A stretch of DNA of 64,000 nt, from assembly GCA_963827755.1 (NCBI GenBank), contig CAWHCQ010000017.1, positions 1 to 64,000 on the forward strand, read 5' to 3'. The position numbers and the translations under genes were made by a program. This document shows, one piece after another, positions 32,301 to 64,000 of this stretch (position 1 is the first letter of the stretch; each line of letters opens with the position of its first letter). Source of the DNA: an uncultured Gammaproteobacteria bacterium. Its GTDB lineage: Bacteria; Pseudomonadota; Gammaproteobacteria; UBA9214. The notes under the pieces are model-generated. The model was given only the letters and a program-made list of their open reading frames with translations. It searched no databases and was not told the origin of the DNA.

Positions 32301-33800
32301 CTACAGGATGCGATCCAGTTTGCGGTAGTTGATGGCTTCGGCCAGGTGTTGTGTGTAGATGTCACCCGATGCATTCATGTCTGCAATGGTGCGCGCCAGT
32401 TTAAGGATGCGGTGATAGGCGCGGGCAGACAGTTGCAGTTTTTCGATGGCCCGTTGCAGCAGCGAGCGGTCCGGGCTTTGCAATGTACATATGTCATCGA
32501 TTTGCCGATGCGACAGCTGGCTGTTGAGGGTGTCGTTGCGCTGCAGTTGCAGGCTGCGCGCCCCGGTTACGCGTTCACGCACCACGGCGCTTGTTTCACC
32601 TTCTGGCCCCTGCATCTCGACAAACGACAGGCGTGGCACCTCGACATGCATGTCGATACGGTCGAGCAGCGGGCCGGACACCCTGTTCCGGTAACGTATC
32701 ACCTGCTCGCTGGTGCAATGGCAGCGCCCGGACTTGTCGCCGAGGTAGCCGCAGGGGCAGGGGTTCATGGCGGCAATCAGTTGAAACCGTGCCGGGAATT
32801 CGGTCTGCCGCCTGGCGCGCGAAATCATGATGCGCCCGGACTCCAGCGGCTCGCGCAACACCTCCAGTACCTGCCGGTTGAATTCCGGTAGTTCGTCGAG
32901 AAACAGCACGCCGTGATGGGCCAGCGAAATCTCCCCCGGTTGCGGGTTGGAGCCGCCACCTACCAGCGCGGCGGCGGAAGCGCTGTGATGCGGTGCGCGA
33001 AAGGCGCGTCGTTTCCAGGTGCGGCAGTCAACGGACTGGCGGCTGATCGATGCGATCGTTGCGGCCTGCAGTGCTTCCGTCTCAGTCATCTCCGGCAGGA
33101 TACCGGGCAGGCGGCTGGCAAGCAGGGACTTGCCGGTACCCGGCGGCCCCGACATCAGCAGGCTGTGTCCGCCGGCGGCGGCAATTTCCAGGGCGCGCCG
33201 CGCCTGATGCTGGCCGCGCACATCGGCCAGGTCGGGCAAGTCGGCAGCACCGGCCGCAACAAGGGCTGCCGGTGTGTAATCGATCAGTGCCGTTTTATTC
33301 AGGTGCCGGGTGAGTTCGAGCAGGTGGTGTGCAGGCACCAGGCTGGCGCCCTTGACAAGACCGGCCTCGGCGGCATTTTCCAGCGGCAGGACTAGTACAC
33401 GCTGCGCCTTTTTTGTGTGCAGGGCCATCGGCAAGATCCCCTGCACCGCGCGCAGGTGGGCGGACAGGGCGAGTTCCCCGGCAAATTCGTACTGCGGCAG
33501 GTCGTTGCCGGGGATCTGGGCGGAGGCAGCGAGAATACCGATGGCAATCGGCAGGTCATAGCGGCCGCCTTCCTTGGGCAGGTCCGCCGGTGCCAGGTTG
33601 ATCGTGATGCGGCGCGCCGGGAAATCGAAATGCGAATTGAGAATGGCGCCGCGTACCCGGTCCTTGCTTTCCTTGACGGCGGTTTCAGCCAGTCCAACGA
33701 TCGACAGTCTCGGCAGGCCGTTGGACAAATGCACCTCGACGGTGACCAGCGGGGCATCCATCCCGACTTGCGCGCGGCTGTAGACAATCGCGAGTGACAT
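32301..33800 (-). CDS. comM: YifB/ComM Mg-chelatase-like AAA ATPase
   Basis: VTVEVHLSNGLP, ITINLAPADLPKEG, GPPGTGKS, FRAPHHSAS, LFLDELPEF, AAMNPCPCG. Confidence 0.95.
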   Translation of the reverse strand: MSLAIVYSRAQVGMDAPLVTVEVHLSNGLPRLSIVGLAETAVKESKDRVRGAILNSHFDFPARRITINLAPADLPKEGGRYDLPIAIGILAASAQIPGNDLPQYEFAGELALSAHLRAVQGILPMALHTKKAQRVLVLPLENAAEAGLVKGASLVPAHHLLELTRHLNKTALIDYTPAALVAAGAADLPDLADVRGQHQARRALEIAAAGGHSLLMSGPPGTGKSLLASRLPGILPEMTETEALQAATIASISRQSVDCRTWKRRAFRAPHHSASAAALVGGGSNPQPGEISLAHHGVLFLDELPEFNRQVLEVLREPLESGRIMISRARRQTEFPARFQLIAAMNPCPCGYLGDKSGRCHCTSEQVIRYRNRVSGPLLDRIDMHVEVPRLSFVEMQGPEGETSAVVRERVTGARSLQLQRNDTLNSQLSHRQIDDICTLQSPDRSLLQRAIEKLQLSARAYHRILKLARTIADMNASGDIYTQHLAEAINYRKLDRIL

Positions 33801-33907
33801 TTCCTGTCCCGGGGTGTGAAAAACGCAGCATAGGAGAATGTGTCTTCCTCAAGCAGGTCCCGTGACCGACAAGGCCTGTCGGACGATGCTGAAAAAGCGG
33901 TGGTTAG

Positions 33908-34171
33908 TCGCGGATTAGATCCGCTCCTACGCAGGGGTGGGTTGTTCATCGCGGATTAGATCCGCTCCTACAGCGCGAATGGTTTTTATGCGGGTGTTGA
34001 TCGCGGATTAGATCCGCTCCTCAGCGCGAATGGTTTTATGCGGGTGATTGATCGCGGATTAGATCCGCTCCTACAGCGCGAATGGGATCATGCGCGAATG
34101 GTTAGTTATCGCGGATTAGATCCGCTCCTACAGGTGGATGTGTCATTGTAGGAGCGCTTCTCAAGCGCGAT
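33908..34171. repeat. Tandem GTAG-REP array upstream of RAYT (5 direct copies plus 1 inverted variant)
   Basis: (A)TCGCGGATTAGATCCGCTCCTAC at 33908, 33948, 34000, 34051, 34108; inverted variant TGTAGGAGCGCTTCTCAAGCGCGAT 34147-34171. Confidence 0.92.
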
Positions 34172-34190
34172 TCGTGATATTCCTGTTTGC

Positions 34191-34655
34191 ATGATTGGAA
34201 AACACCGTGCCTGTGATTTACGCAAAGGAAGGATATCACTGCCTGGTCAGCTTTATCTGGTTACAACGGTTACGAGTGGCAGGAAGGCCCTGTTTGCCAA
34301 CTTCCATGCAGGTCGTGTGGTGGTGCGGGAAATCAGGCGTTCTGAATGTTTCGGCTGGACTGACACCCTCGCATTCGTGATCATGCCGGATCATATCCAC
34401 TGGCTGTTCTCCATACAAAAAGATATTTCGCTGTCGTGCGTTGTCGGGACCGTGAAACGTCATTCAGCCAGGAAGATTAATGATTTGATTAGAAGTCGAG
34501 GATCACCTGTCTGGCAACAGGGCTTCCATGACCATGCTCTGCGCAGGGAGGAGGATGCAGTTCATGTTGCACGGTATATCGTGGCAAATCCGTTACGCGC
34601 AGGGCTTGTAGGCCGAATCGGTGATTATCCGTTATGGGATGCGGCATGGTTGTAG
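34191..34655 (+). mobile_element. rayT: REP-associated tyrosine transposase (RAYT / TnpA-REP, HUH Y1 family)
   Basis: YLVTTVT, FVIMPDHIHW (HUH), WQQGFHDHALR, ARYIVANPLRAGLV (catalytic Tyr); REPs on both sides. Confidence 0.93.
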
Positions 34656-34684
34656 GGGAAGGGATATCCACGTAGCTGGATTTG

Positions 34685-34790
34685 ATCGCGGATTAGATCC
34701 GCTCCTACGGGGTTTTGGTTCATTGCAATCGCGAAGCAAACCAGGCAGATGCAATGATTGGCCACTGTAGGAGCGGATCTAATCCGCGAT
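34685..34790. repeat. Inverted REP doublet (REPIN) downstream of RAYT
   Basis: ATCGCGGATTAGATCCGCTCCTAC 34685-34708 and TGTAGGAGCGGATCTAATCCGCGAT 34766-34790. Confidence 0.92.
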
Positions 34791-34807
34791 TTGCTCCTTT
34801 AGCTTGA

Positions 34808-35053
34808 TTAGCGCTGTGTCTCTTCCAGTTCCGCGACGGTCTTTTCGAGGTGTTCGAGTTTCTCGCGGGTGCGCGCCAGGACGCGTGACTGGGCGTCGAA
34901 TTCTTCCCGGGTGACCAGGTCCAGTTTGGCGAGGGTGCCCTCCAGCAGGGTGCGGATGTTTTTGCTCACGTCCGCCTGCATTTCCTTCATCCCGGCGGGG
35001 ATGGTGGCGCTGATCTGGCGGGCAAGGTCGTCGATGAGTTTCATGGTTGACAT
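34808..35053 (-). CDS. ubiK: Accessory factor UbiK (YqiC/BMFP family)
   Basis: KLDLVTREEFDAQSRVLARTREKLEHLE; usual position between glnK and comM. Confidence 0.9.
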   Translation of the reverse strand: MSTMKLIDDLARQISATIPAGMKEMQADVSKNIRTLLEGTLAKLDLVTREEFDAQSRVLARTREKLEHLEKTVAELEETQR

Positions 35054-35099
35054 GCCCTCACCATAGTCGATTCGCGGGTTTTGCGTCCAGCCTCACGGC

Positions 35100-35241
35100 T
35101 GCACTGAAACAGTGCACTGTAGCGGGGCGTGCGGGCCCTGTATGCACTGTTATCGTGCGTGGCTCACCAGGTATTGTGCCTCCATAACAGAATAACCTAT
35201 TGAATATATATATGAAATATATAAGTGGCACGGTTTCTGCT
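35100..35241 (+). promoter_or_regulatory. NtrC boxes, IHF-like site and sigma54 promoter of the porin-glnK-amt operon
   Basis: TGCACTGAAACAGTGCA 35100-35116, TGCACTGTTATCGTGCG 35143-35159, ATTCAA-N4-TTA (minus, 35193-35205), TGGCACGGTTTCTGCT 35226-35241. Confidence 0.88.
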
Positions 35242-35328
35242 ATTGGTAAAGTGATTTTCCCCTTTTTACGCAGTTGAAGTGGTTGTCATTGCACAGTGTT
35301 TAACCACAACTTAAATGGAGATAGAGAC

Positions 35329-36071
35329 ATGATGAAGAAAACTTTACTTGCAGCGGCAATGCTGGCGACCTCTTCGGCGGCACTTGCTGAAATCAGCGGC
35401 AACGTAACACTGGCCACTGATTACGTGTTCCGTGGTATTTCACAAACGGATAACCAGATGGCCATCCAGGGTGGTTTGGATTACGCGTGGGATAACGGTT
35501 TTTACGTAGGCACCTGGGCTTCAAACGTGGATTCGAGTTTTTTCGATAATGGACGTGACCCGCAGATCGAACTTGATATGTATGGCGGTTACAGTGGTGA
35601 GTACGATGATTTTGGCTATGACGTGGGATATCTGCGCTACCAGTATCCCAGTAGCGACAATGTGAACACCAACGAAGTTTATGTCTCTGGTACTTATATG
35701 GGGTTAACAGTGTCACTTAACTATTCCGATGAGTTGCAGTTCATACTTTCGGACCAGAGTGCCTGGTACTTCAAAGACCTCTTACGAGCAGACATTGCCG
35801 TGGTATGACATCGGCATCTCTACGCATGTCGGCCATAACTTCGGTGATGCCTTTGATGTGGGTATATCTGACTTGTTAAAGGCGACTCAGGTCTTCAAGA
35901 TTCCTATACTGACTGGAGCATCGGCGTGTCCAAGAGCTGGATGGGTGTTGATTTCGGGCTGACTTATACTGATCTCACCGACATCAAGTTTTCAGACTGC
36001 TGACCGAATCGAAGTGTACGGCTAACTGGTGTGACAGCAAGGTCGTATTTACCGTTGGTAAAAGTCTTTAA
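35329..36071 (+). CDS. TorF-family putative porin (Gcw_chp); several frameshifts in the 3' third
   Basis: Signal peptide, SGNVTLATDYVFRGISQT, AIQGGLDY, GFYVGTWASNV, ELDMYGGY; C-terminus VVFTVGKSL*. Confidence 0.85.
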
Positions 36072-36124
36072 TCTGATGACAAAGCCTGCCCTTCGGGGCA
36101 GGTGTTTTTAATATTAAGGAGTAA

Positions 36125-36469
<345 letters not shown>

Positions 36470-36492
36470 TCACATAGACGGAGGAGATTCAA

Positions 36493-37756
36493 GTGGAAGC
36501 ATTAACTGAAGTGAAGTATGCGCTGGACACCTTTTACTTTTTGATGACGGGTGTCCTCGTAATGTGGATGGCCGCAGGCTTTTCGATGCTCGAGGCAGGT
36601 ATGGTGCGTGCCAAAAACACGGCCGAAATTCTGACCAAGAATATTTCCCTGTTTGCCGTCGCCAGCATTATGTACATGCTGGCGGGATACAGCATTATGT
36701 ATCCGGGCGAGGCCGTCAATGCATGGTGGCCTGGTTTTGGCGACATCCTGGGAAAGACCGACAATACGGCAGCTGAAGTACTGGCCAGTGGCGGGGATAC
36801 CTATTATTCCGGCCTGTCTGACTTCTTCTTCCAGGTTGTGTTCGTCGCAACCGCCATGTCGATTGTCTCGGGTGCCGTTGCGGAACGCATGAAGCTGTGG
36901 GCATTCCTTTTCTTTGCGGTGGTCATGACCGGTTTCATTTACCCGTTGCAGGGTTACTGGAAGTGGGGCGGCGGCGGCCTGGATGCACTCGGCTTCCTCG
37001 ACTTCGCCGGTTCCGGCGTGGTGCATTTGTGTGGTGCAACGGCAGCGTTTGCCGGTGTGCTGCTGCTCGGAGCTCGTAAGGGCAAATACCGTTCCGATGG
37101 TTCGATCAACCCGATACCAGGTGCGAACATGCCGCTGGCAACCCTCGGTACCTTCATCCTCTGGATGGGCTGGTTCGGCTTCAACGGTGGTTCAGAGCTG
37201 GTTATTTCCGATGTCGCAGAGGCCAACAATGTCGCGCTGGTATTCGTGAATACCAATATGGCAGCAGCCGGTGGCGTGATTGCCGCGATGCTGACCGCAC
37301 GCATGTTGTTCGGCAAGACCGATCTGACCATGGCGCTCAACGGCGCACTGGCCGGCCTGGTTGCCATTACTGCCGAACCGCTGACGCCGACGCCGCTGCT
37401 TGCCACCATTATCGGTGCCATCGGTGGTGTCATCGTGGTGTTCTCCATCATCAGCCTCGACAAGATGAAGCTGGATGATCCGGTCGGTGCCATCTCGGTG
37501 CACGGTGTGGTCGGTATGTGGGGGCTGCTCGCGGTTGTCCTCTCCAATCCGGATGCAACCCTGGTCGCACAGTTGACCGGACTCGGCGTGATCTTTGCCT
37601 GGACCCTGGTGGCCAGCCTGATCACCTGGGGCATTATCAAGATGGTGATTGGTATCCGCGTCAGCGAGGAAGAGGAATACGCAGGTGTCGACCTTATCTG
37701 AATGTGGCCTGGAGGCTTACCCTGAGTTTGTCGGTTCGCAGGGTTCCGGTAAGTAG
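36493..37756 (+). CDS. amt: Ammonium transporter (Amt family, copy 1); frameshift near 37695
   Basis: SIVSGAVAER, DFAGSGVVH, WMGWFGFNGGS, DDPVGAISVHG; shifted tail ECGLEAYPEF. Confidence 0.95.
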
Positions 37757-37795
37757 TCTTTAAAACCGGGTAAGAAGTAAGAAGTTAGTAGTATT

Positions 37796-37824
37796 AAACG
37801 GGCGCTTCGGCGCCCGTTTTTTTT
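37796..37824 (+). terminator. Rho-independent terminator after amt copy 1
   Basis: AAACGGGCGC-TTCG-GCGCCCGTTT followed by T run. Confidence 0.9.
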
Positions 37825-37829
37825 ATCAT

Positions 37830-38328
<499 letters not shown>

Positions 38329-38366
38329 AAATTTTCGAATAACCTATTCAACCGGGGAGAATTCCA

Positions 38367-39668
38367 ATGAGTTTTATCAAACCCAAAGGGCTGTCAGCCC
38401 TCCTTCTGAGCCTGTTCGCGGCCAGTATGCCGGCATTGGCAATGGCCGATGAACTCAGCAGTGGCGATACGGGGTGGATCCTGACGTCTACCGCACTGGT
38501 ATTGTTCATGACCATTCCGGGACTCGCGCTGTTCTATGCCGGACTGGTGCGCAGCAAGAATGTGCTCTCTGTTTTAATGCAGTGTTTTGCCATTACCTGC
38601 ATGGTGTCCATCCTCTGGTTTGCCTACGGCTATAACCTGGCCTTCGGTGATGGCGGCTACATGAATCAGTGGATGGGTGGTTTCGGCAACCTGTTCATGT
38701 CGAATGTCGACCGCGACAGTATGAGCGGCACCATTCCGGAGAGCGTGTTCGCGATGTTCCAGATGACTTTTGCCATTATTACACCGGCGCTGATCGTCGG
38801 CGGTTTTGCCGAGCGCATGAAGTTCTCGGCCATGCTGCTGTTTTCCGCTATCTGGTTGACCGTTGTCTATGCGCCGGTCTGTCACTGGGTCTGGGGTGGC
38901 GGCTGGCTTGCCGATATGGGCCTGCTGGACTTTGCCGGCGGTACGGTGGTGCATATCAATGCCGGTGTTGCGGCCATTGTTGCCGCCTTGGTGCTGGGCA
39001 GTCGCAAGGGCTTTGGCGAGGTAGCCATGCCACCGCACAACATGACCATGACCGTGGCGGGTGCTGCAATGCTCTGGGTCGGCTGGTTCGGTTTCAACGC
39101 CGGCAGTGCGCTGGCGGCGAACGGTGATGCCGGCATGGCCATGCTGGTCACGCATATCGGCGCGGCATCCGGTTCACTGGCATGGATGTTCATGGAGTGG
39201 GTGCGCCACGGCAAGCCGAGTGTGCTGGGTATCGTCACCGGCATGGTCGCCGGTCTCGGAACGATCACCCCGGCATCCGGTTTTGTCGGCCCGATGGGTG
39301 CGCTGATTATCGGCCTGACGGCGGGCGTGGTCTGCTACACGGCGACCAGCTTCATCAAGCGGACGCTGAAGATCGATGATTCCCTTGACGTGTTCCCGGT
39401 GCACGGTGTCGGCGGCGTGCTCGGGACCATGCTGGCCGGTGTATTTGTTGCCATCATGGGCGGCGTCGGCCTGGCGGAAGGCGTGACCATGGGTGACCAG
39501 GTGTGGGTGCAGTTTGTGGGTGTTGCGGCCACGATCGTTTATTGCGGTGTTTTGACCTGGGTCATTCTCAAGGTAGTTGATTTGATCGTTGGTCTTCGTG
39601 TCAGCGGGGATGAAGAGACCGAGGGTCTTGATATCGTGCTGCACGACGAGACGGGTTATAACCTGTAG
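38367..39668 (+). CDS. amtB: Ammonium transporter AmtB (copy 2, canonical type with signal peptide)
   Basis: GDTGWILTSTALVLFMTIPGLALFY, FQMTFAIITPALI, DFAGGTVVH, DDSLDVFPVHG. Confidence 0.97.
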   Translation: MSFIKPKGLSALLLSLFAASMPALAMADELSSGDTGWILTSTALVLFMTIPGLALFYAGLVRSKNVLSVLMQCFAITCMVSILWFAYGYNLAFGDGGYMNQWMGGFGNLFMSNVDRDSMSGTIPESVFAMFQMTFAIITPALIVGGFAERMKFSAMLLFSAIWLTVVYAPVCHWVWGGGWLADMGLLDFAGGTVVHINAGVAAIVAALVLGSRKGFGEVAMPPHNMTMTVAGAAMLWVGWFGFNAGSALAANGDAGMAMLVTHIGAASGSLAWMFMEWVRHGKPSVLGIVTGMVAGLGTITPASGFVGPMGALIIGLTAGVVCYTATSFIKRTLKIDDSLDVFPVHGVGGVLGTMLAGVFVAIMGGVGLAEGVTMGDQVWVQFVGVAATIVYCGVLTWVILKVVDLIVGLRVSGDEETEGLDIVLHDETGYNL

Positions 39669-39692
39669 TTTCAGGTTATTTCCGGTATAGGG

Positions 39693-39719
39693 ACGGGCGC
39701 TTCGGCGCCCGTTTTTTTT
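39693..39719 (+). terminator. Rho-independent terminator after amtB
   Basis: ACGGGCGC-TTCG-GCGCCCGT + T run, identical core to 37798-37824. Confidence 0.9.
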
Positions 39720-39733
39720 GTTTTGTCTATTTG

Positions 39734-40525
39734 TTGGGGCGCCTTGCAGGCGCTGGTTTTATTTGATGCGGGCTCTCGCGCCCGCCGGCGAGATACTTTT
39801 CTTTGCTTCGCCAAAGAAACGTATCCAAAAGAAAGGCGACCCGGAGGTGCAGCCCGAATACTCATTTTCAATGAGTATTCGGGTTCCCTGCGCTTCTCGC
39901 GAAAACCGGCGCATGCGCAACTCGCAATCTCGCTGCGCTCGAAAGCTCAGACAGGGCGCATGCTTCATCCGGTTTTCACTGCGATGCTCGGCTGCGCCTA
40001 CGGGAGGGGTAGATCAAACTCCAATCGGTGAGCCAGGTAGGATGGGTAAAGCGCAGCGTACCCATCAGGGTTCGGTGCTTTGATGGGTACGGCCTTCGGC
40101 CTTACCCATCCTACATAAAGGGAGTTGTGATTTACCCTCCCCGTAGCACTCACCGAGTACCGCAGCCAATCCGGGGAATAGCCGCGCACCCTGTCTGAGC
40201 TTTCGAGCGCAGCGAGATTGCGAGTTGTGCGCGGCCCCCGGATTGGCGAGGAACGCACGGGCAAGGCTGCGAGCGGCCTTGTAGTTCAAGCGGTGAGTGC
40301 TCCGGGTGCCTTTCTCTTTGGGTACTTTCTCTTGGGCAAGGCTGCGAAGCGGCCTTGTATATTCACGAAAGTACCTCGCCGCGCGGGCGCGAGAGCCCGC
40401 ATCCAATAAAACCGCGCCTGCAAGGCGCTCCAACAAAGAAATCGGCGGAGCGGAGAAAGGTGCCTCGCCGTGCGGGCAGCGAAAGCCCGCATCAAAAAAA
40501 ACCAGCGCCTGCAAGGCGCCCCCAA
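39734..40525. repeat. Large paired structured repeat: arm A (39734-40022), nested REP doublet, inverted arm B (40120-40436) plus a short extra subunit (40441-40525)
   Basis: Arms share an identical core CAACTCGCAATCTCGCTGCGCTCGAAAGCTCAGACAGGG and the same order of hairpins; near-identical copy at 63536-64000. Confidence 0.9.
40037..40114. repeat. Second-class GTAG REP doublet nested between the arms
   Basis: GTAGGATGGGTAAAGCGCAGCGTACCCATC ... GATGGGTACGGCCTTCGGCCTTACCCATCCTAC; degenerate single copy at 22063-22092. Confidence 0.85.
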
Positions 40526-40531
40526 TGGCTC

Positions 40532-40768
40532 CTACAATTTATTATGTGTCCCGTCGCAAAACGGCTTATCACTGCTGTGCTTGCAGCCGCATAGCCAGAC
40601 TTTGGTCTTTTCCGTGAGTTCGAATTTCACCGGGGTAAACTCGCTTCCCTTGTGCGAGCCGTCACAGAACGGCTGGTTTTTTGACTTGCCGCAGGCGCAC
40701 CACCAGTAGCTGCCCGCTTCCAGTTCCTGTTCATAGGGTGATTTTTGTGCAATGGTTGGCTCTGCCAT
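40532..40768 (-). CDS. CDGSH iron-sulfur domain protein (two CDGSH motifs)
   Basis: WCACGKSKNQPFCDGSH and LCGCKHSSDKPFCDGTH; start MAEPTIAQK at 40768. Confidence 0.93.
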   Translation of the reverse strand: MAEPTIAQKSPYEQELEAGSYWWCACGKSKNQPFCDGSHKGSEFTPVKFELTEKTKVWLCGCKHSSDKPFCDGTHNKL

Positions 40769-40796
40769 GATGATTCCCGTTATAGAATAAAGAATC

Positions 40797-41429
40797 GTGA
40801 GTAAAACACCCCCATTACTGCAAATCAAGAATCTGCGACGCCTGGCGATCGGGCCGCTGTCGCTGGATGTCGATAGCGGCGATTGCCTGTGTATCTCCGG
40901 GCCATCCGGTTGCGGTAAATCGCAACTGCTGCGTGCAATCGCCGATCTTGATCCGCACGAGGGGGAGGTCTTGCTCGAGGGGGTCGACGCCAACGCGATT
41001 GCAGCGAACGAGTGGCGTGCACGGGTTGCCTTGCTGCCACCGGAGAGCTGCTGGTGGCTGCCACACGCCATTGATCATTTTCGTGACGGTGTGCCCATAG
41101 CACTTGAGCATATTGGTCTGTCGACGCCCATTCTTGACCAGCCGGTCAGTCGGCTTTCAAGTGGTGAACGGCAACGCCTTGCGCTGATGCGCCTGCTCTC
41201 CAACCGGCCGCGGGTGCTGCTGCTCGATGAGCCGACGGCCAACCTCGACCCGGAGAATACCCGGCGCATCGAGACGGTGATCACGGAATACCGCCGCAGT
41301 CACGATGCAGCGGTCATCTGGGTCAGCCACGACAGCGAGCAGGTCAAGCGGGTTGCAAACCGTTATTATGCAGTGGTGGATGGCCACCTGCAGCAGCGTG
41401 AGATGGAGTGGACGCAATGGTTACGTTGA
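40797..41429 (+). CDS. fetA: ABC ATP-binding protein, FetA/YbbL-like
   Basis: GPSGCGKS, LSSGERQR, LLLDEPTANLD, WVSHD; paired with FetB. Confidence 0.82.
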   Translation: MSKTPPLLQIKNLRRLAIGPLSLDVDSGDCLCISGPSGCGKSQLLRAIADLDPHEGEVLLEGVDANAIAANEWRARVALLPPESCWWLPHAIDHFRDGVPIALEHIGLSTPILDQPVSRLSSGERQRLALMRLLSNRPRVLLLDEPTANLDPENTRRIETVITEYRRSHDAAVIWVSHDSEQVKRVANRYYAVVDGHLQQREMEWTQWLR

Positions 41430-42208
41430 CAATTGCCGACCTGGCCATTGCGGCGCTGCTGGTGGTATTACTGGCCTTGCTGTCGATGCGCCTGCAAACC
41501 GGCATCAGCCAGCAACTGGTCATTGCCGCTGCCAGGACCGCCATCCAGCTGACCCTGATCGGGCTGGTGCTGAAAGCCCTGTTTGCGAATGTGCAGTTTG
41601 GCTGGGTGTCACTCATGGCCCTGTTCATGTTGCTGGTTGCCGGGCGTGAGGTCATGGCGCGGCAGGAACGGCGCTTCAAGGGCTGGTGGGGTTACGCGGT
41701 CGGCACCTTCTCGATGTTCCTGTCATCCTTTACCGTTACCGTATTTGCCCTCATCATCATTCTCGGGGAGACGCCGTGGTATGAACCACAGTATGCGATT
41801 CCCCTGCTCGGCATGTTGCTGGGCAACACCATGAACGGCATCTCGATTGCCATGGACCGCCTGACCACCTCGGCATGGGAGCAGCGCAGCGTGATAGAGG
41901 CGCGCCTGATGCTCGGCGAGCGTGCGGATGAGGCGATATCGGAAATTCGAAGACAGGCGATTCGCAGCGGCATGATCCCTATTATCAACGCCATGGCCGC
42001 GGCCGGTATTATCAGCCTGCCGGGTATGATGACCGGGCAGATACTGGCAGGTGCCGCGCCGGTCGAGGCGGTGAAATACCAGATCCTTATAATGTTCCTG
42101 ATCACCGCCGGTACCGGGCTGGGCACCATGGCAGCCGTTACCATTGGCGCAAAACACCTGTTCGACAAGCGCCAGCGGCTTTGCCTGGAACGGTTGCGGG
42201 AAAAATAA
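41417..42208 (+). CDS. fetB: Iron export ABC permease FetB/YbbM (UPF0014)
   Basis: RTAIQLTLIG, PQYAIPLLGMLLGNTMNG, GIISLPGMMTGQILAG, AVKYQILIMF. Confidence 0.9.
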   Translation: MVTLTIADLAIAALLVVLLALLSMRLQTGISQQLVIAAARTAIQLTLIGLVLKALFANVQFGWVSLMALFMLLVAGREVMARQERRFKGWWGYAVGTFSMFLSSFTVTVFALIIILGETPWYEPQYAIPLLGMLLGNTMNGISIAMDRLTTSAWEQRSVIEARLMLGERADEAISEIRRQAIRSGMIPIINAMAAAGIISLPGMMTGQILAGAAPVEAVKYQILIMFLITAGTGLGTMAAVTIGAKHLFDKRQRLCLERLREK

Positions 42209-42244
42209 CGGGTCTCCGGACTGCAAATCGGCTGCAGGTGCGCC

Positions 42245-42706
42245 ATGAAACTATTCACCATGTTTTTTGTTGTCGTCATGTTCACCAGCGTGGAAGTGGC
42301 GGCGGAAATCTATAAATGCACGTCTGCCGGCGGGGAGGTTGATTACACCGACAGGCCTTGCCGGGGAGAGTCAAGCATTTTTGTTCCCGGCCCGGCACCC
42401 GTGGTGGATGAACATGTGAAAGCGCGCGAGGAAAAAAGAAAACGGCTGCTGCGTGCCTACCGCGAGGAAGATGCTGCGGAAAAACAAAAAGCCGCCGAGC
42501 TGAAGGCCGAACGCGAAAGGCGCGCGGAGCACTGCCGTCGTGCAAGAATAAATTACCGCAGGATCAGGGAGGCCGGGCGTGTTTTCCGGCCCGGCAGCGA
42601 CGGCGAACGTGTCGACTTCACGGACGAGGAACGCGCCGCGGCAACAGCCCGTGCACAGGCCGATGTCGAAGCAATGGTGCGACGGGAAATAACGGCAGCG
42701 AATTGA
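42245..42706 (+). CDS. DUF4124-like exported protein
   Basis: Signal peptide then AEIYKCTSAGGEVDYTDRPC, charged helical C-terminus. Confidence 0.75.
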   Translation: MKLFTMFFVVVMFTSVEVAAEIYKCTSAGGEVDYTDRPCRGESSIFVPGPAPVVDEHVKAREEKRKRLLRAYREEDAAEKQKAAELKAERERRAEHCRRARINYRRIREAGRVFRPGSDGERVDFTDEERAAATARAQADVEAMVRREITAAN

Positions 42707-42758
42707 ACCGGCCGCTGCAAAAACAGGCCGCCATGCGCAGCCACTGGAGCAGACGCTT

Positions 42759-43649
42759 ATGAAAACCGGCATTATCGGACTCGGAGCCATGGGTGGGCCC
42801 ATGGCAGGCAACCTGAACCGGGCCGGCTATCTCGAGACGGTCTGGAATCGCAGCAGCGACAAGGCGCAGCGGCTTGCCGGTGAACTTGGCGTGGCGCTTG
42901 CAGACAGCCCGGCGACACTGGCGCAGCAGTGCGAACTCATTATCCTGTCCGTATCCGCCGATGCGGATGTGCTCGAAATTATCGAGGCAATGAAACCCGG
43001 TTTGAGTGCCGGCAAGGTCGTACTGGATACCTCCACCGTCAGCCGCGAGACCGCACAGCAGGCCGCGGCCCTGCTCGAGCAAAGCGGCGTCGACTTCCTC
43101 GATGCACCGGTCTCCGGCGGTATCGAGGGTGCGCGCCAGGGCACGCTGGCCATGATGGTCGGCGGCGACCGCGCGGTACTTGACAAGATCCGGCCGGTAC
43201 TGGATTCAATTGCCGGGCGCGTCGCTCACATGGGGCCGGTCGGTGCCGGCCAGTCCACCAAGGCCGTCAACCAGGTGATGGCCGCCGGCATCAACCAGGC
43301 CGTCACCGAGGCGCTCGCCTTTGCACAGGCACTCGACTTGCCCATGGACAAGGTCATCGAGGTCGTCGGTGGCGGGGCGGCCGGCAACTGGTTTCTCGAC
43401 CACCGCGGCCCGGGCATGACAGCGGGTAAATTCGAGCCGGGCTTTCGCGTTGCACTGCACCACAAGGATCTCGTCATCTGCCAGCAGCTGGCCGAGCAGT
43501 TCGACGTCGCCCTGCCGGTGATCGAGATGACGCTGATTCACTACCGCCGGTTAATGGCGGCCGGCTATGGTGATGAAGACATCTCCGCACTGTTTCGGGA
43601 GAAGCGGGGAATGTTTGAAAAAGGCAGTGACCGCCCGAAACGACCCTGA
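42759..43649 (+). CDS. NAD(P)-dependent beta-hydroxyacid dehydrogenase (3-hydroxyisobutyrate / tartronate semialdehyde reductase family)
   Basis: GLGAMG, FLDAPVSGG, GAGQSTKAVNQ, LHHKDL. Confidence 0.92.
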   Translation: MKTGIIGLGAMGGPMAGNLNRAGYLETVWNRSSDKAQRLAGELGVALADSPATLAQQCELIILSVSADADVLEIIEAMKPGLSAGKVVLDTSTVSRETAQQAAALLEQSGVDFLDAPVSGGIEGARQGTLAMMVGGDRAVLDKIRPVLDSIAGRVAHMGPVGAGQSTKAVNQVMAAGINQAVTEALAFAQALDLPMDKVIEVVGGGAAGNWFLDHRGPGMTAGKFEPGFRVALHHKDLVICQQLAEQFDVALPVIEMTLIHYRRLMAAGYGDEDISALFREKRGMFEKGSDRPKRP

Positions 43650-43925
43650 CCGTTATCCAGCGGGCTGTGCACCCCGCGACTGCCCTTGTTGATAAACCGG
43701 CGAATCCACCGAGTACAGGATTGCCCTGTGCGCAGACTGTCATGCCGGGCCCGGATTGCATCTCGACCACAATCGAGCAAACGTTTTTTACTCCATGTCA
43801 TGTTTGAAAATTCTTTTAGGCCATGTAGTATCAGGCTGAGCCATTGAATTAATGTCAGTCAATAATCAAACATGTCCTGAAAGTCGCAATACAAAGGCGA
43901 CTTTCAGATTGCTCAGGATAAATCA

Positions 43926-44528
43926 GTGAGATCATGTTGTGATGATGACTGCGCTCTTGACGCTCTTCGCGATAAGCAGCGCAGTACGCTTGTAAAGGTC
44001 CTGTGGATTAATGCCTTCATGTTTATTGCTATAGCTGCGGCGGCGTTTTATGGCAAGTCAACCGCCCTGCTATCTGACAGCCTGGACAACCTGGGTGATG
44101 CATTGACATATGGATTAAGCTTGTTTGCGGTCTCCAAGGGCACAACTGCAAAGGCTCGCGTTGCTCTGTTCAAGGGTGGCCTGATTTTCCTGGCGGCTTG
44201 CATTGTTGTTGCCCAGATAATCTACAGACTTGTCAATCCAGTGCTCCCTTCCTATGAAGTAATGAGTATCTTTAGTCTTGCTGGCCTGGCAGCAAACGGG
44301 GTGTGTTTATTACTGCTTTGGCACCATCGGAATGAAGACATCAATATGAGCTCTGTTTTCGAGTGTTCACGAAATGATATTGCTGCAAACCTGTCTGTAA
44401 TAATGGCGGCTATCGGTGTCTGGGCATTTAACTCAGGCTTGCCAGACATCATTATTGCAACACTCCTGGCAGCACTTCTTTTGAATTCGTCTGCTCGGGT
44501 TATAAAGGGAGCATTGTCGGAGTTATAG
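43926..44528 (+). CDS. Cation transporter (short CDF/CzcD-like)
   Basis: STALLSDSLDNLGDA, NMSSVFECSRND, 5-6 TM, N-terminal CCDDDC. Confidence 0.8.
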   Translation: MRSCCDDDCALDALRDKQRSTLVKVLWINAFMFIAIAAAAFYGKSTALLSDSLDNLGDALTYGLSLFAVSKGTTAKARVALFKGGLIFLAACIVVAQIIYRLVNPVLPSYEVMSIFSLAGLAANGVCLLLLWHHRNEDINMSSVFECSRNDIAANLSVIMAAIGVWAFNSGLPDIIIATLLAALLLNSSARVIKGALSEL

Positions 44529-63535: not shown

Positions 63536-64000
63536 GGCGAGGCACCTTTCTCCGCTCCGCCGATTTGGTAGAAGCGCCTTGCAGGCGCTGGTTTTATTTT
63601 ATGCGGGCTCTCGCGCCCGCGCGGCGAGATACTTTTCTTTGCTCCGCCAAAGAAACGTATCCAAAAGAAAGGCGGCCCGAAGGTGCAGCCCGAATACTCA
63701 TTTTCAATGAGTATTCGGGTTCCCTGCGCTTCTCGCGAAAACCGGCGCATGCGCAACTCGCAATCTCGCTGCGCTCGAAAGCTCAGACAGGGCGCATGCT
63801 TCATCCGGTTTTCACTGCGATGCTCGGCTGCGCCTACGGGAAGGTAGGTCAACTCCCACATACTCACGGATTGGGGGTAGATTTACCCACCCGTAGCACT
63901 CACCGAGTACCGCAGCCAATCCGGGGAATAGCCGCGCACCCTGTCTGAGCTTTCGAGCGCAGCGAGATTGCGAGTTGTGCGCGGCCCCCGGATTGGCGAG
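63536..64000. repeat. Second copy of the large paired structured repeat (extra subunit, arm A 63573-63857, inverted arm B from 63873, cut by window end)
   Basis: 63573-63840 nearly identical to 39738-40004; 63891-64000 identical to 40141-40250; no nested REP doublet here. Confidence 0.9.

Follow-up and report, generated by a model that had tools for sequence, protein, structure and literature searches.

An ammonium transporter gene (amtB) and a CDGSH iron-sulfur gene face each other across a gap of about 800 bases in the stretch of DNA studied here (the first 64,000 nucleotides of contig CAWHCQ010000017.1, assembly GCA_963827755.1, from an uncultured gammaproteobacterium of the UBA9214 lineage; hereafter the window), and the locus raises the question of what fills this gap. 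Positions 39730-40522 are occupied by a doublet of two arms of about 290 nucleotides (nt), inverted and tail to tail, whose stems differ in sequence while their pairing is kept. On balance, we favour the view that the locus holds a copy of a non-coding foldback doublet that occurs many times in the genome and here lies between the ends of convergent genes, each arm being able to fold on itself; the doublet would have spread as a mobile unit, and would be a sister to the extended TwoAYGGAY elements with a different and uncatalogued body. The doublet belongs to a dispersed family with copies present or absent at orthologous sites, in which the stems covary, several unpaired or mismatched motifs are invariant and an arm of type 1 is paired with one of type 2. 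The element is real and structured, and probably mobile; how it is copied and what role it plays we infer from the comparisons given below.

The original prediction, made from the letters of this locus, had described an inverted pair of structured arms, stems replaced pairwise between the two and a near-identical apical stretch. These points are borne out by a repeat finder, which recovered a 45-nt core with 96% complementarity between the arms, outer inverted repeats with 95% complementarity, and internal stems of 16 nt (I7), 14 nt (I8) and 12 nt (I9) that are the stems listed earlier. In agreement with this, arm A is of type 1 and arm B of type 2, each at nine out of nine diagnostic features. 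The arm architecture originally proposed was likewise retained, and was corrected for three later additions, namely an extra tandem copy of the outer module outside arm B proper, an inserted GTAGGATGGG-type hairpin pair of a repetitive extragenic palindrome (REP) in the centre, and a 25-nt mini-hairpin present twice in arm B. The outer modules form the direct repeats D1/D2, spaced by 90-91 nt, and the mini-hairpins the direct repeats D3/D4. The extra outer module also occurs at five other loci in the genome of the window (G000). The GTAGGATGGG word is found 26 times in that genome, the central insertion is missing from its other 11 doublets, and in contigs of public runs 40128 follows on 40017 or 40032, with no insertion between.

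From the outer end inward, each arm consists of a hairpin with a T-run (H1), a second hairpin (H2), a pyrimidine/purine hairpin with another purine run 3-5 nt beyond it, a long basal stem (P0/P1), a side hairpin (P1a), a linker helix, the stems P2 and P3, an apical core (AACTCG..CTCAGACAGG) and a 3' tail. These elements make up four parts, which are a terminator-like hairpin, a hairpin with a mirror-repeat strand, a rod with a three-way junction and an ACGGG...TCAAAACC tail. The basal stem is of 15 bp (CCCGGAGGTGCAGCC / GGCTGCGCCTACGGG) and includes the tetranucleotide CTAC. The two linkers, CTGCGYTYCTCG and CTGCGRTRCTCGG, are near-identical and form an antiparallel helix that holds two G.T pairs and three conserved pyrimidine-pyrimidine mismatches.

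As single strands, arm A (-71.9 kcal/mol, z -4.9) and its complement (-72.0 kcal/mol, z -5.6) fold better than all of 200 shuffles, and arm B (-85.1 kcal/mol, z -7.1) better than all of 100. In order to follow these stems across the family, a 41-pair structure written from arm A was compared with 81 distinct arms from many genomes; the register of helix P3 varies between arms, and an alignment-based pair count was used rather than a fixed-register one. Pairing was observed in 85.7% of 3227 cells, against 68.6% with shuffled partners, and none of 500 shuffles reached the observed value. Since the sequences are related and come partly from one genome, the shuffle count overstates their independence, and the safer measures are the number of pair types and the control with slid partners, in which a displacement of 1-3 columns leaves only 30-47% paired. 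In fact, 30 of the 41 pairs change on both sides, and helix P2 alone occurs in 50 distinct variants, 89% Watson-Crick paired with their own partner and 47% with the partners of others. Two columns within the linker helix (L1/L2) switch together between CG and UA, which shows that the linkers form a helix containing fixed mismatches, and not loops. The motifs CTGCGYTYCTCG, AACTCG and CTCARACA are invariant across distant taxa. Accordingly, the earlier claim of folded elements that are selected or maintained through compensatory changes extends from two arms to 81.

The family is abundant in the genome of the window (2.85 Mb in 52 contigs, 92% complete), which harbors 12 complete doublets, two cut by contig ends, two single arms, both of type 1, and one fragment. 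BLAST returned 45 matches there, and a covariance model of the inner arm body (R1, 119 positions, 26 pairs) returned 29, the highest arm count in the genus, in which copy number ranges from 0 to 29; many copies of arm A are 97-98% identical. Arms were detected in 18 of 24 congeners by BLAST and in 23 of 36 by model R1, which also found them in 19 of 150 other families of the class, each represented by one genome. An exact pattern of two conserved motifs matched 59 loci in a one-genome-per-species collection, including three Silvimonas records, Alkalilimnicola ehrlichii, metagenome-assembled genomes (MAGs) of Thiobacillus and Thiohalobacterales, and one MAG labelled Verrucomicrobia. No arm match was found in phage records or in E. 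coli genomes, and plasmid and chromid records matched only in the 50-60 nt end module (16 records, from Burkholderia, Ralstonia, Pasteurella, Aeromonas, Pseudoalteromonas and Chitinibacter). Structured doublets of this superfamily fill many intergenic gaps in Beta- and Gammaproteobacteria, and in annotation they account for spurious open reading frames (ORFs), for breaks between contigs in MAGs and for long 'empty' stretches behind stop codons.

The arms follow rules of arrangement. In congeners with long contigs nearly all matches listed are pairs of a + arm and then a - arm, tail to tail and 20-170 nt apart (10 of 10 matches in five facing pairs in G048, eight of eight in four pairs in G052), and no head-to-head pair occurs among the matches listed. 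From a typing sample of 20 doublets in six congeners, 16 doublets from five congeners could be typed at both end modules; 15 of these combine type 1 with type 2 and one combines two type-2 arms. In the genome of the window eight of the 12 complete doublets are clean pairs of type 1 and type 2 and one is nearly so, and the pair of arms A and B is confirmed as the recurring unit. By crude ORF calls, eight of the 12 lie between convergent ORFs. Tandem arrays of arms in the same direction were seen in two other taxa (loci L087 and L128). We hypothesize that the whole A+B unit spreads, or has spread, in the manner of a non-autonomous mobile element, and that the divergence between A and B would keep a 600-bp palindrome from being perfect and unstable; the presence of two arm lineages in nearly every doublet may explain how such a palindrome survives in a bacterial genome.

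Mobility is suggested by the comparison of orthologous sites. Between amtB and the CDGSH gene, the doublet is present in G000 and in its closest congener (G012), and in seven congeners the same gene pair is separated by other REPs or by a short spacer in place of the doublet; among the remaining congeners, one has another neighbouring gene and two have contigs that end too early. At a second site G012 carries the doublet in the opposite orientation, and G020 has there a plain small REPIN (two REPs in an inverted doublet) built from the same REP that caps the arms of G000. A joint of 39719 to 40576 in two public DNA runs was considered as an empty site and rejected, as it has 25 letters on its short side and unknown letters between, and it most likely comes from a relative with other intergenic sequence. 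Miniature inverted-repeat transposable elements (MITEs) and foldback transposons have long imperfect terminal inverted repeats, lack a transposase, occur in many copies and occasionally carry passenger DNA. The doublet resembles them in all of these features, including its long imperfect inverted arms, and differs in that its inverted repeats are internally folded and of two lineages, and in that neither a target-site duplication, for whose reading an exact empty site would be needed, nor a transposase parent was found.

The relationship with TwoAYGGAY emerges from shared ends. According to the accessible part of a recent preprint (bioRxiv 10.64898/2026.09.22.753630, 24 September 2026), TwoAYGGAY elements are multi-copy, with two AYGGAY-loop hairpins that share one basal stem, and with a pseudoknot at the 3' end; in Pseudomonadota they reach a median of 11-23 copies per genome, their doublets are enriched, 68.4% of them being divergent, and REP arrays lie nearby. 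As the Rfam strand is the complement of the one used here, our 'tail-to-tail convergent' arms correspond to the 'divergent' ones of the preprint, and our triplex module to its 3' pseudoknot. The arms display the architecture of the extended TwoAYGGAY elements, as far as that text describes them, with an elongated basal stem, a terminal pseudoknot or triplex module, back-to-back doublets in many intergenic copies, an association with REPs and a very variable copy number. They differ in the arm body, where a three-way junction and a separate set of invariant motifs are found, and where AYGGAY loops and, in this genome, any match to RF01731 are lacking. In fact, no AYGGAY loops were seen on either strand of 83 parsed arms, by reading and not by a formal scan, and RF01731 is found in seven of 150 other genera, none of which is among the 19 that bear arms. 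TwoAYGGAY doublets of G156 have in their flanks the H2 hairpin, the hairpin with mirror strand and the CCCG..ACGGG stem of our arms, with the same facing, and a chimeric doublet of G087 (L192, G087:C1, about 359900-360700) combines one arm like those of the window with one full Rfam TwoAYGGAY arm. The window-like arm of L192 carries the motifs CCCTGTGCGCTTCGG .. CTGCAGTGCTCGG .. CGACGGGAATCAAG, and both of its arms have the same triplex end module. Because these modules are shared and RF01731 does not match, the arms were filed as a new body variant within the TwoAYGGAY superfamily, rather than as a member of RF01731 or a REPIN. The original prediction could not assign the element to a named family, which remains correct as regards Rfam, where a search of the region 33000-44000 at E up to 1 returned just three weak matches of a terminator-like kind, none on the arms, and has to be amended as regards the termini and the doublet geometry. 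No published description of the arm body was found in the literature on bacterial intrastrand triplex repeats, TwoAYGGAY, or REPIN, RAYT and REP doublets; supplementary figures S17-S29 of the preprint may show variants.

Another structural feature of the arms is the end module, in which the second purine run mirrors the first in every informative variant, of which there are at least four. The pairs of first and second runs are AAAGAAAAG and AAAAGAAAG, AAGAGAAAG and AAAGAGAAG, AAAAGAAAGG and AAAGAAAAGG (in Silvimonas and one Pasteurella arm), AAGAGAAAAG and AAAAGAGAAGG, and AAAGAAGAAG and AAGAAGAAAGG. With blocks of 9-10 nt and loops of 5-6 and 3-5 nt, the module has the form of a triplex motif (three consecutive triplex-forming blocks with 6-15 nt stems and 1-6 nt loops). 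An intrastrand purine-motif triplex on the analysed strand, like a U.A-U / C+.G-C triplex on its complement, would need such mirror symmetry, which the module keeps while its sequence changes, as would be required of a triple helix. The accessible text of Holder et al. (2015, PMC4666352) treats the triplex classes of the two strands as coupled. It is therein that the BoxC / TM_ECO repeat appears as a G/C-rich (CCCTCNCCC), free-standing element of 56 nt, whereas the end module of the arms is A/T-rich (CTTTTCTTTG / CAAAGAAAAG / AAAAGAAAGG), ends a larger element and is predicted to form its triplex. A triple helix is likely from the pattern of these sequences; the hairpin and mirror strand would then mark the end of the element, in the purine motif on one strand and as U.A-U / C+.G-C on the TwoAYGGAY RNA strand. 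Folding of the module as an alternative hairpin with a direct repeat fits worse than the mirror reading. G/C-rich motifs resembling BoxC / TM_ECO (CCCCTCTCCC..GGGAGAGGG..GGGNGAGGGG) lie directly beside arms at five loci in other genomes (L087, L119, L128, L186 and L188), and two kinds of triplex-type repeat therefore cluster.

Several observations weigh against a mobile, structured sister of TwoAYGGAY. The mirror alignment beats the direct-repeat one by just 1-2 positions per variant, the tracts being nearly self-similar, and one arm of G087 does not fit the mirror rule. RF01731 had no match in the genome of the window, either genome-wide at E up to 0.001 or in the region 33000-44000 at E up to 1 (threshold 43 bits). 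An exact empty site was not found at the amtB-CDGSH locus and three further loci in five congeners, where the flanks have diverged or hold other repeats, and no enzyme linked to the element emerged from the distribution of Y1 transposases or from the centres of wide arm pairs. Three of the 12 doublets of the window's genome have recombinant arms, with 5' and 3' halves of different types and broken stems, which would be the expected product of crossing-over between the shared cores of inverted arms. Wobbles in the interior of stems are rare and balanced (31 G.T and 21 A.C against 2650 Watson-Crick pairs), and, the H1/H2 region apart, their count gives no signal as to which strand folds. Such near-pure Watson-Crick stems are unlike those of most RNAs under selection and fit maintenance at the DNA level or hairpin correction during replication, and the 'compensatory' changes could in part stem from hairpin-templated correction of DNA palindromes and not from selection on the fold. 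Finally, the terminator role of the outer modules is a putative one, read from consensus matches.

Of the alternatives, the one that survives best, and which we nevertheless regard as unlikely, is that the doublet is a pair of divergent structured small RNA genes read from the centre outward, in the TwoAYGGAY orientation, which end in a U.A-U triple helix and hairpins and act in trans, for example as a protein sponge, their spread being secondary. The sister family is catalogued as the RNA motif RF01731 and, in the accessible part of the preprint, proposed as a Csr/Rsm sponge (bioRxiv 10.64898/2026.09.22.753630); on that strand the end module reads as a textbook pyrimidine-motif RNA triple helix, and the invariant mismatched loop would be purine-rich, as in many tertiary or protein-binding motifs of RNA. 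A weak hint of transcription comes from one metatranscriptome, in which contigs on the arms have a summed depth of 35-79 against 5-15 on amtB, a comparison in which many copies are summed, strand and ends are lacking and DNA is a possible source. On the other hand, no sigma-70-like promoter was found in 39500-40700, and the centre of the doublet is variable and interrupted by insertions or cargo. In addition, G.U pairs make up about 1% without strand bias, which is unusual for a selected RNA, and conserved AYGGAY or GGA loops were not seen in the arm body by reading.

The cargo just mentioned leads to a second alternative. Three families of the class sample contain five wide arm pairs (two in G080, two in G169, one in G070), whose arms lie 0.68-1.6 kb apart instead of the usual 20-170 nt, with their usual facing and full end modules, and all five centres have a G+C content of 0.36-0.44 against 0.46-0.62 in the flanks. 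The ORFs of these centres encode unrelated small proteins without a Pfam, PADLOC or NCBIfam family, and no transposase is present in the five pairs; one ORF falls in a large ESM Atlas cluster of hypothetical proteins with a sub-threshold HEPN_AbiU2 lead, and a second gave nothing usable. A sixth pair, 5.9 kb apart (L187, G112:C11:114700-121900), holds an IS110-family transposase, a trypsin-like peptidase, a PEP-CTERM protein and orphan genes, with a G+C content of 0.35-0.39 in part, and its IS110 gene looks like a secondary insertion. The wide pairs and the REP insertion in the window say that the doublet centre tolerates or attracts foreign DNA, foreign genes included. It is rather doubtful, in our judgement, that the doublet is on this account the empty form of a gene-carrying platform, in which the arms are the ends of a new non-autonomous element, or of an integration hotspot accepting foreign DNA, and the end modules and mismatched loops are recognised by an enzyme other than RAYT that acts on folded single strands.

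The elements may instead be punctuation kept by the host, either a bidirectional terminator or insulator or a site that binds protein or forms structure like the bacterial interspersed mosaic elements (BIMEs), spread by recombination and not by transposition. A consensus scan detected seven terminator-like sites against 1.8 expected in shuffles, five of them in the outer modules or arm, and a G+C-rich hairpin with a T-run is predicted at H1 of both arms, at the extra module and at H2 of arm A; these hairpins face inward at both ends of the doublet. The elements lie 8-70 nt after stop codons, mostly between convergent ORFs, and the invariance in distant taxa of motifs such as those named above suggests a conserved binding partner. 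Likewise, the H1/H2 region is an exception to the balance of wobbles, with 15 interior G.T against 2 A.C on the inward-reading strand, a bias that fits hairpins read as RNA by transcription entering from the neighbouring gene. This alternative is nonetheless improbable, since orthologous sites of congeners do without the doublet, amtB keeps a terminator of its own, copy number falls to zero in some congeners, and an arm of 290 nt far exceeds what a terminator needs. For a foldback doublet that has spread as a unit, the same outer hairpin and T-rich strand may act as inward-facing terminators, which would make its insertion tolerated or even useful after stop codons.

The original prediction had raised the possibility of a giant REPIN-like pair moved by a RAYT-like enzyme; a RAYT (REP-associated tyrosine transposase) recognises GTAG beside hairpins in single-stranded DNA. 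REPs have a conserved GTAG-type tetranucleotide at their end. In the genome of the window such a gene does lie 5 kb from the doublet, and the arms of G000 and G012 are capped by a stem identical to one rarer local REP variant, GTAGGAGCGCCTTGCAGGCGCGAT, a plain REPIN of which stands in G020 at the one locus described above; the high number of arms and the near identity of many copies would also fit a recent burst. Nevertheless, the arrays on either side of the RAYT consist of another, canonical 24-nt REP, GTAGGAGCGGATCTAATCCGCGAT, and not of arms, and this REP and its C variant occur in 49 copies in G000, where true REPINs are of about 65 nt. Because arrays of GTAGGAGCGGATCTAATCCGCGAT flank it and REPINs of this repeat are present, the RAYT already has its own cognate repeats. 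The CTAC noted after each long stem is indeed there; it lies within the basal stem and lacks conservation, reading CAAC, CGAC, CAGAC, CTGAC or CGAA in the arms of relatives. The H1 15-mer occurs at 38 places in the window's genome, 31 of them at arm ends, and only four of 31 arm-end caps keep GTAG, most of them reading GTTG; arms of other species have other hairpins at the cap position or none. The suggested co-occurrence with RAYT/Y1 genes failed as well: in the class sample, 12 of the 19 genomes with arms and 77 of the 131 without them (a tally that includes G177) have Y1 transposases, which are no more frequent in the former, and no Y1 gene was found in the arm-bearing G133 (23 arm matches, rated 100% complete), G073 and G169. 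Mobilisation by the genome's RAYT is for these reasons highly improbable. A REPIN, in the accessible text of Bertels and Rainey (2011, PMC3337134, PMC3116915), is made of two short inverted REP palindromes with a short spacer. The doublet shares with REPINs, so described, the dispersed, intergenic and non-coding nature of an inverted pair of hairpin repeats, and the outermost hairpin of the G000 arms is REP-derived; its arms are about ten times longer, of two types, with at least five helices and a junction, and without a conserved GTAG or Y1 co-occurrence, and it was consequently rejected as a REPIN. A copy capped by a REP may have contributed to the local burst. RAYT, the usual suspect, does not define or carry the arm family and can be set aside, and the copying agent of the foldback doublet would be a different one.

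The positions of the arms, of the later additions and of the neighbouring genes and repeats are compiled in Table 1.

Table 1. Parts of the doublet and surrounding features, in window coordinates.
Feature	Position	Strand	Basis or remark
REP GTAGGAGCGGATCTAATCCGCGAT array	33950-34135		
RAYT (ORF), Y1 transposase	34191-34655		PF01797, E 2.6e-9
REP GTAGGAGCGGATCTAATCCGCGAT array	34685-34790		
Ammonium transporter, first paralogue	36493-37701		
Terminator sequence ACGGGCGCTTCGGCGCCCGTTTTTTTT	37797-37826		end of first paralogue
REPIN of REP GTAGGAGCGGATCTAATCCGCGAT	37834-37898		after first amtB paralogue
P-II gene	37957-38328		between the paralogues
Ammonium transporter amtB	38367-39668		PF00909; stop codon faces doublet
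Canonical terminator of amtB	39689-39719		upstream of doublet; ACGGGCGCTTCGGCGCCCGTTTTTTTT at 39693-39719
Outer inverted repeats	39736-39779 / 40479-40522		repeat finder
Core inverted repeats	39915-39959 / 40186-40230		repeat finder
Arm A	39738-40004	+	type 1
Arm A H1, REP-derived stem GGCGCC..GGCGC, then T-run	39738-39765	+	terminator scan; terminator-like, inward-facing
Arm A H2, GCGGGCTCTCGCGCCCGC or alternatively TCTCGC..GCGAGA; T-rich strand next	39768-39793	+	congeners have the homologous GTTTCGCCC-N4-GGGCGAG
Arm A triplex module: pyrimidine 39794-39805, purine 39812-39823, mirror-repeat third strand 39825-39838	39794-39838	+	mirror in several independent sequence variants
Arm A body: P0/P1 39840-39854 with 39990-40004; P1a 39853-39883; L1/L2 39886-39899 with 39979-39991; P2, P3; apical core 39919-39955	39840-40004	+	covariation, fold
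Arm A 3' tail, AGGGGTAGATCAAACTCC, local form of the ACGGG..TCAAAACC end of the family	40005-40022	+	
Centre insertion, GTAGGATGGGTAAAGCG..CCCATCCTAC REP-type hairpin pair, outside element proper	40037-40114	+	absent from other doublets
Arm B	40139-40430	-	type 2
Arm B tail and body: P1 3' strand 40139-40155, L2 40153-40165, P2, P3, core 40190-40226, L1 40247-40258, P1 5' strand 40291-40306	40120-40306	-	type 2
Mini-hairpin, first copy	40259-40283		replaces side hairpin of arm B
Arm B triplex module: third strand 40307-40321, purine 40322-40334, pyrimidine 40367-40374	40307-40374	-	loop interrupted by second mini-hairpin
Mini-hairpin, second copy	40334-40359		
Arm B H2 40383-40400, H1 40413-40430 and T-run	40383-40437	-	terminator scan; terminator-like, inward-facing
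Extra tandem outer module: H1 40504-40520, H2 40472-40490, start of pyrimidine strand	40444-40522	-	direct repeats D1/D2
CDGSH iron-sulfur gene	40532-41071	opposite to amtB	PF09360; stop codon faces doublet
Second doublet, type 1 + type 2	63574-64000		runs to C17:64167; no central REP insertion

The second doublet at the end of the window is of the same family. Both ammonium transporter paralogues end in the identical terminator sequence given in the table. The 25-nt mini-hairpin has the form TACAAGGCCGC(T)TCGCAGCCTTGCCC, and in arms from two other genomes (L108 and L121) near-identical copies take the place of the side hairpin; a further copy was noted in the window's genome (G000 C4:87640-87680), and this small repeat seems to target the arms of the doublet family. 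In Pasteurella multocida (NZ_CP020346.1, locus L190) a doublet lies between dapF and a DUF484 gene; its triplex end modules (of types 1 and 3) and its CCCG..ACGGGG stem are the same, and its body is different and AT-rich, with a core, GTTAGCAGACTACGCACTGCGTGCTTCGCTG, shared by both arms, which makes it a further body variant of the superfamily.

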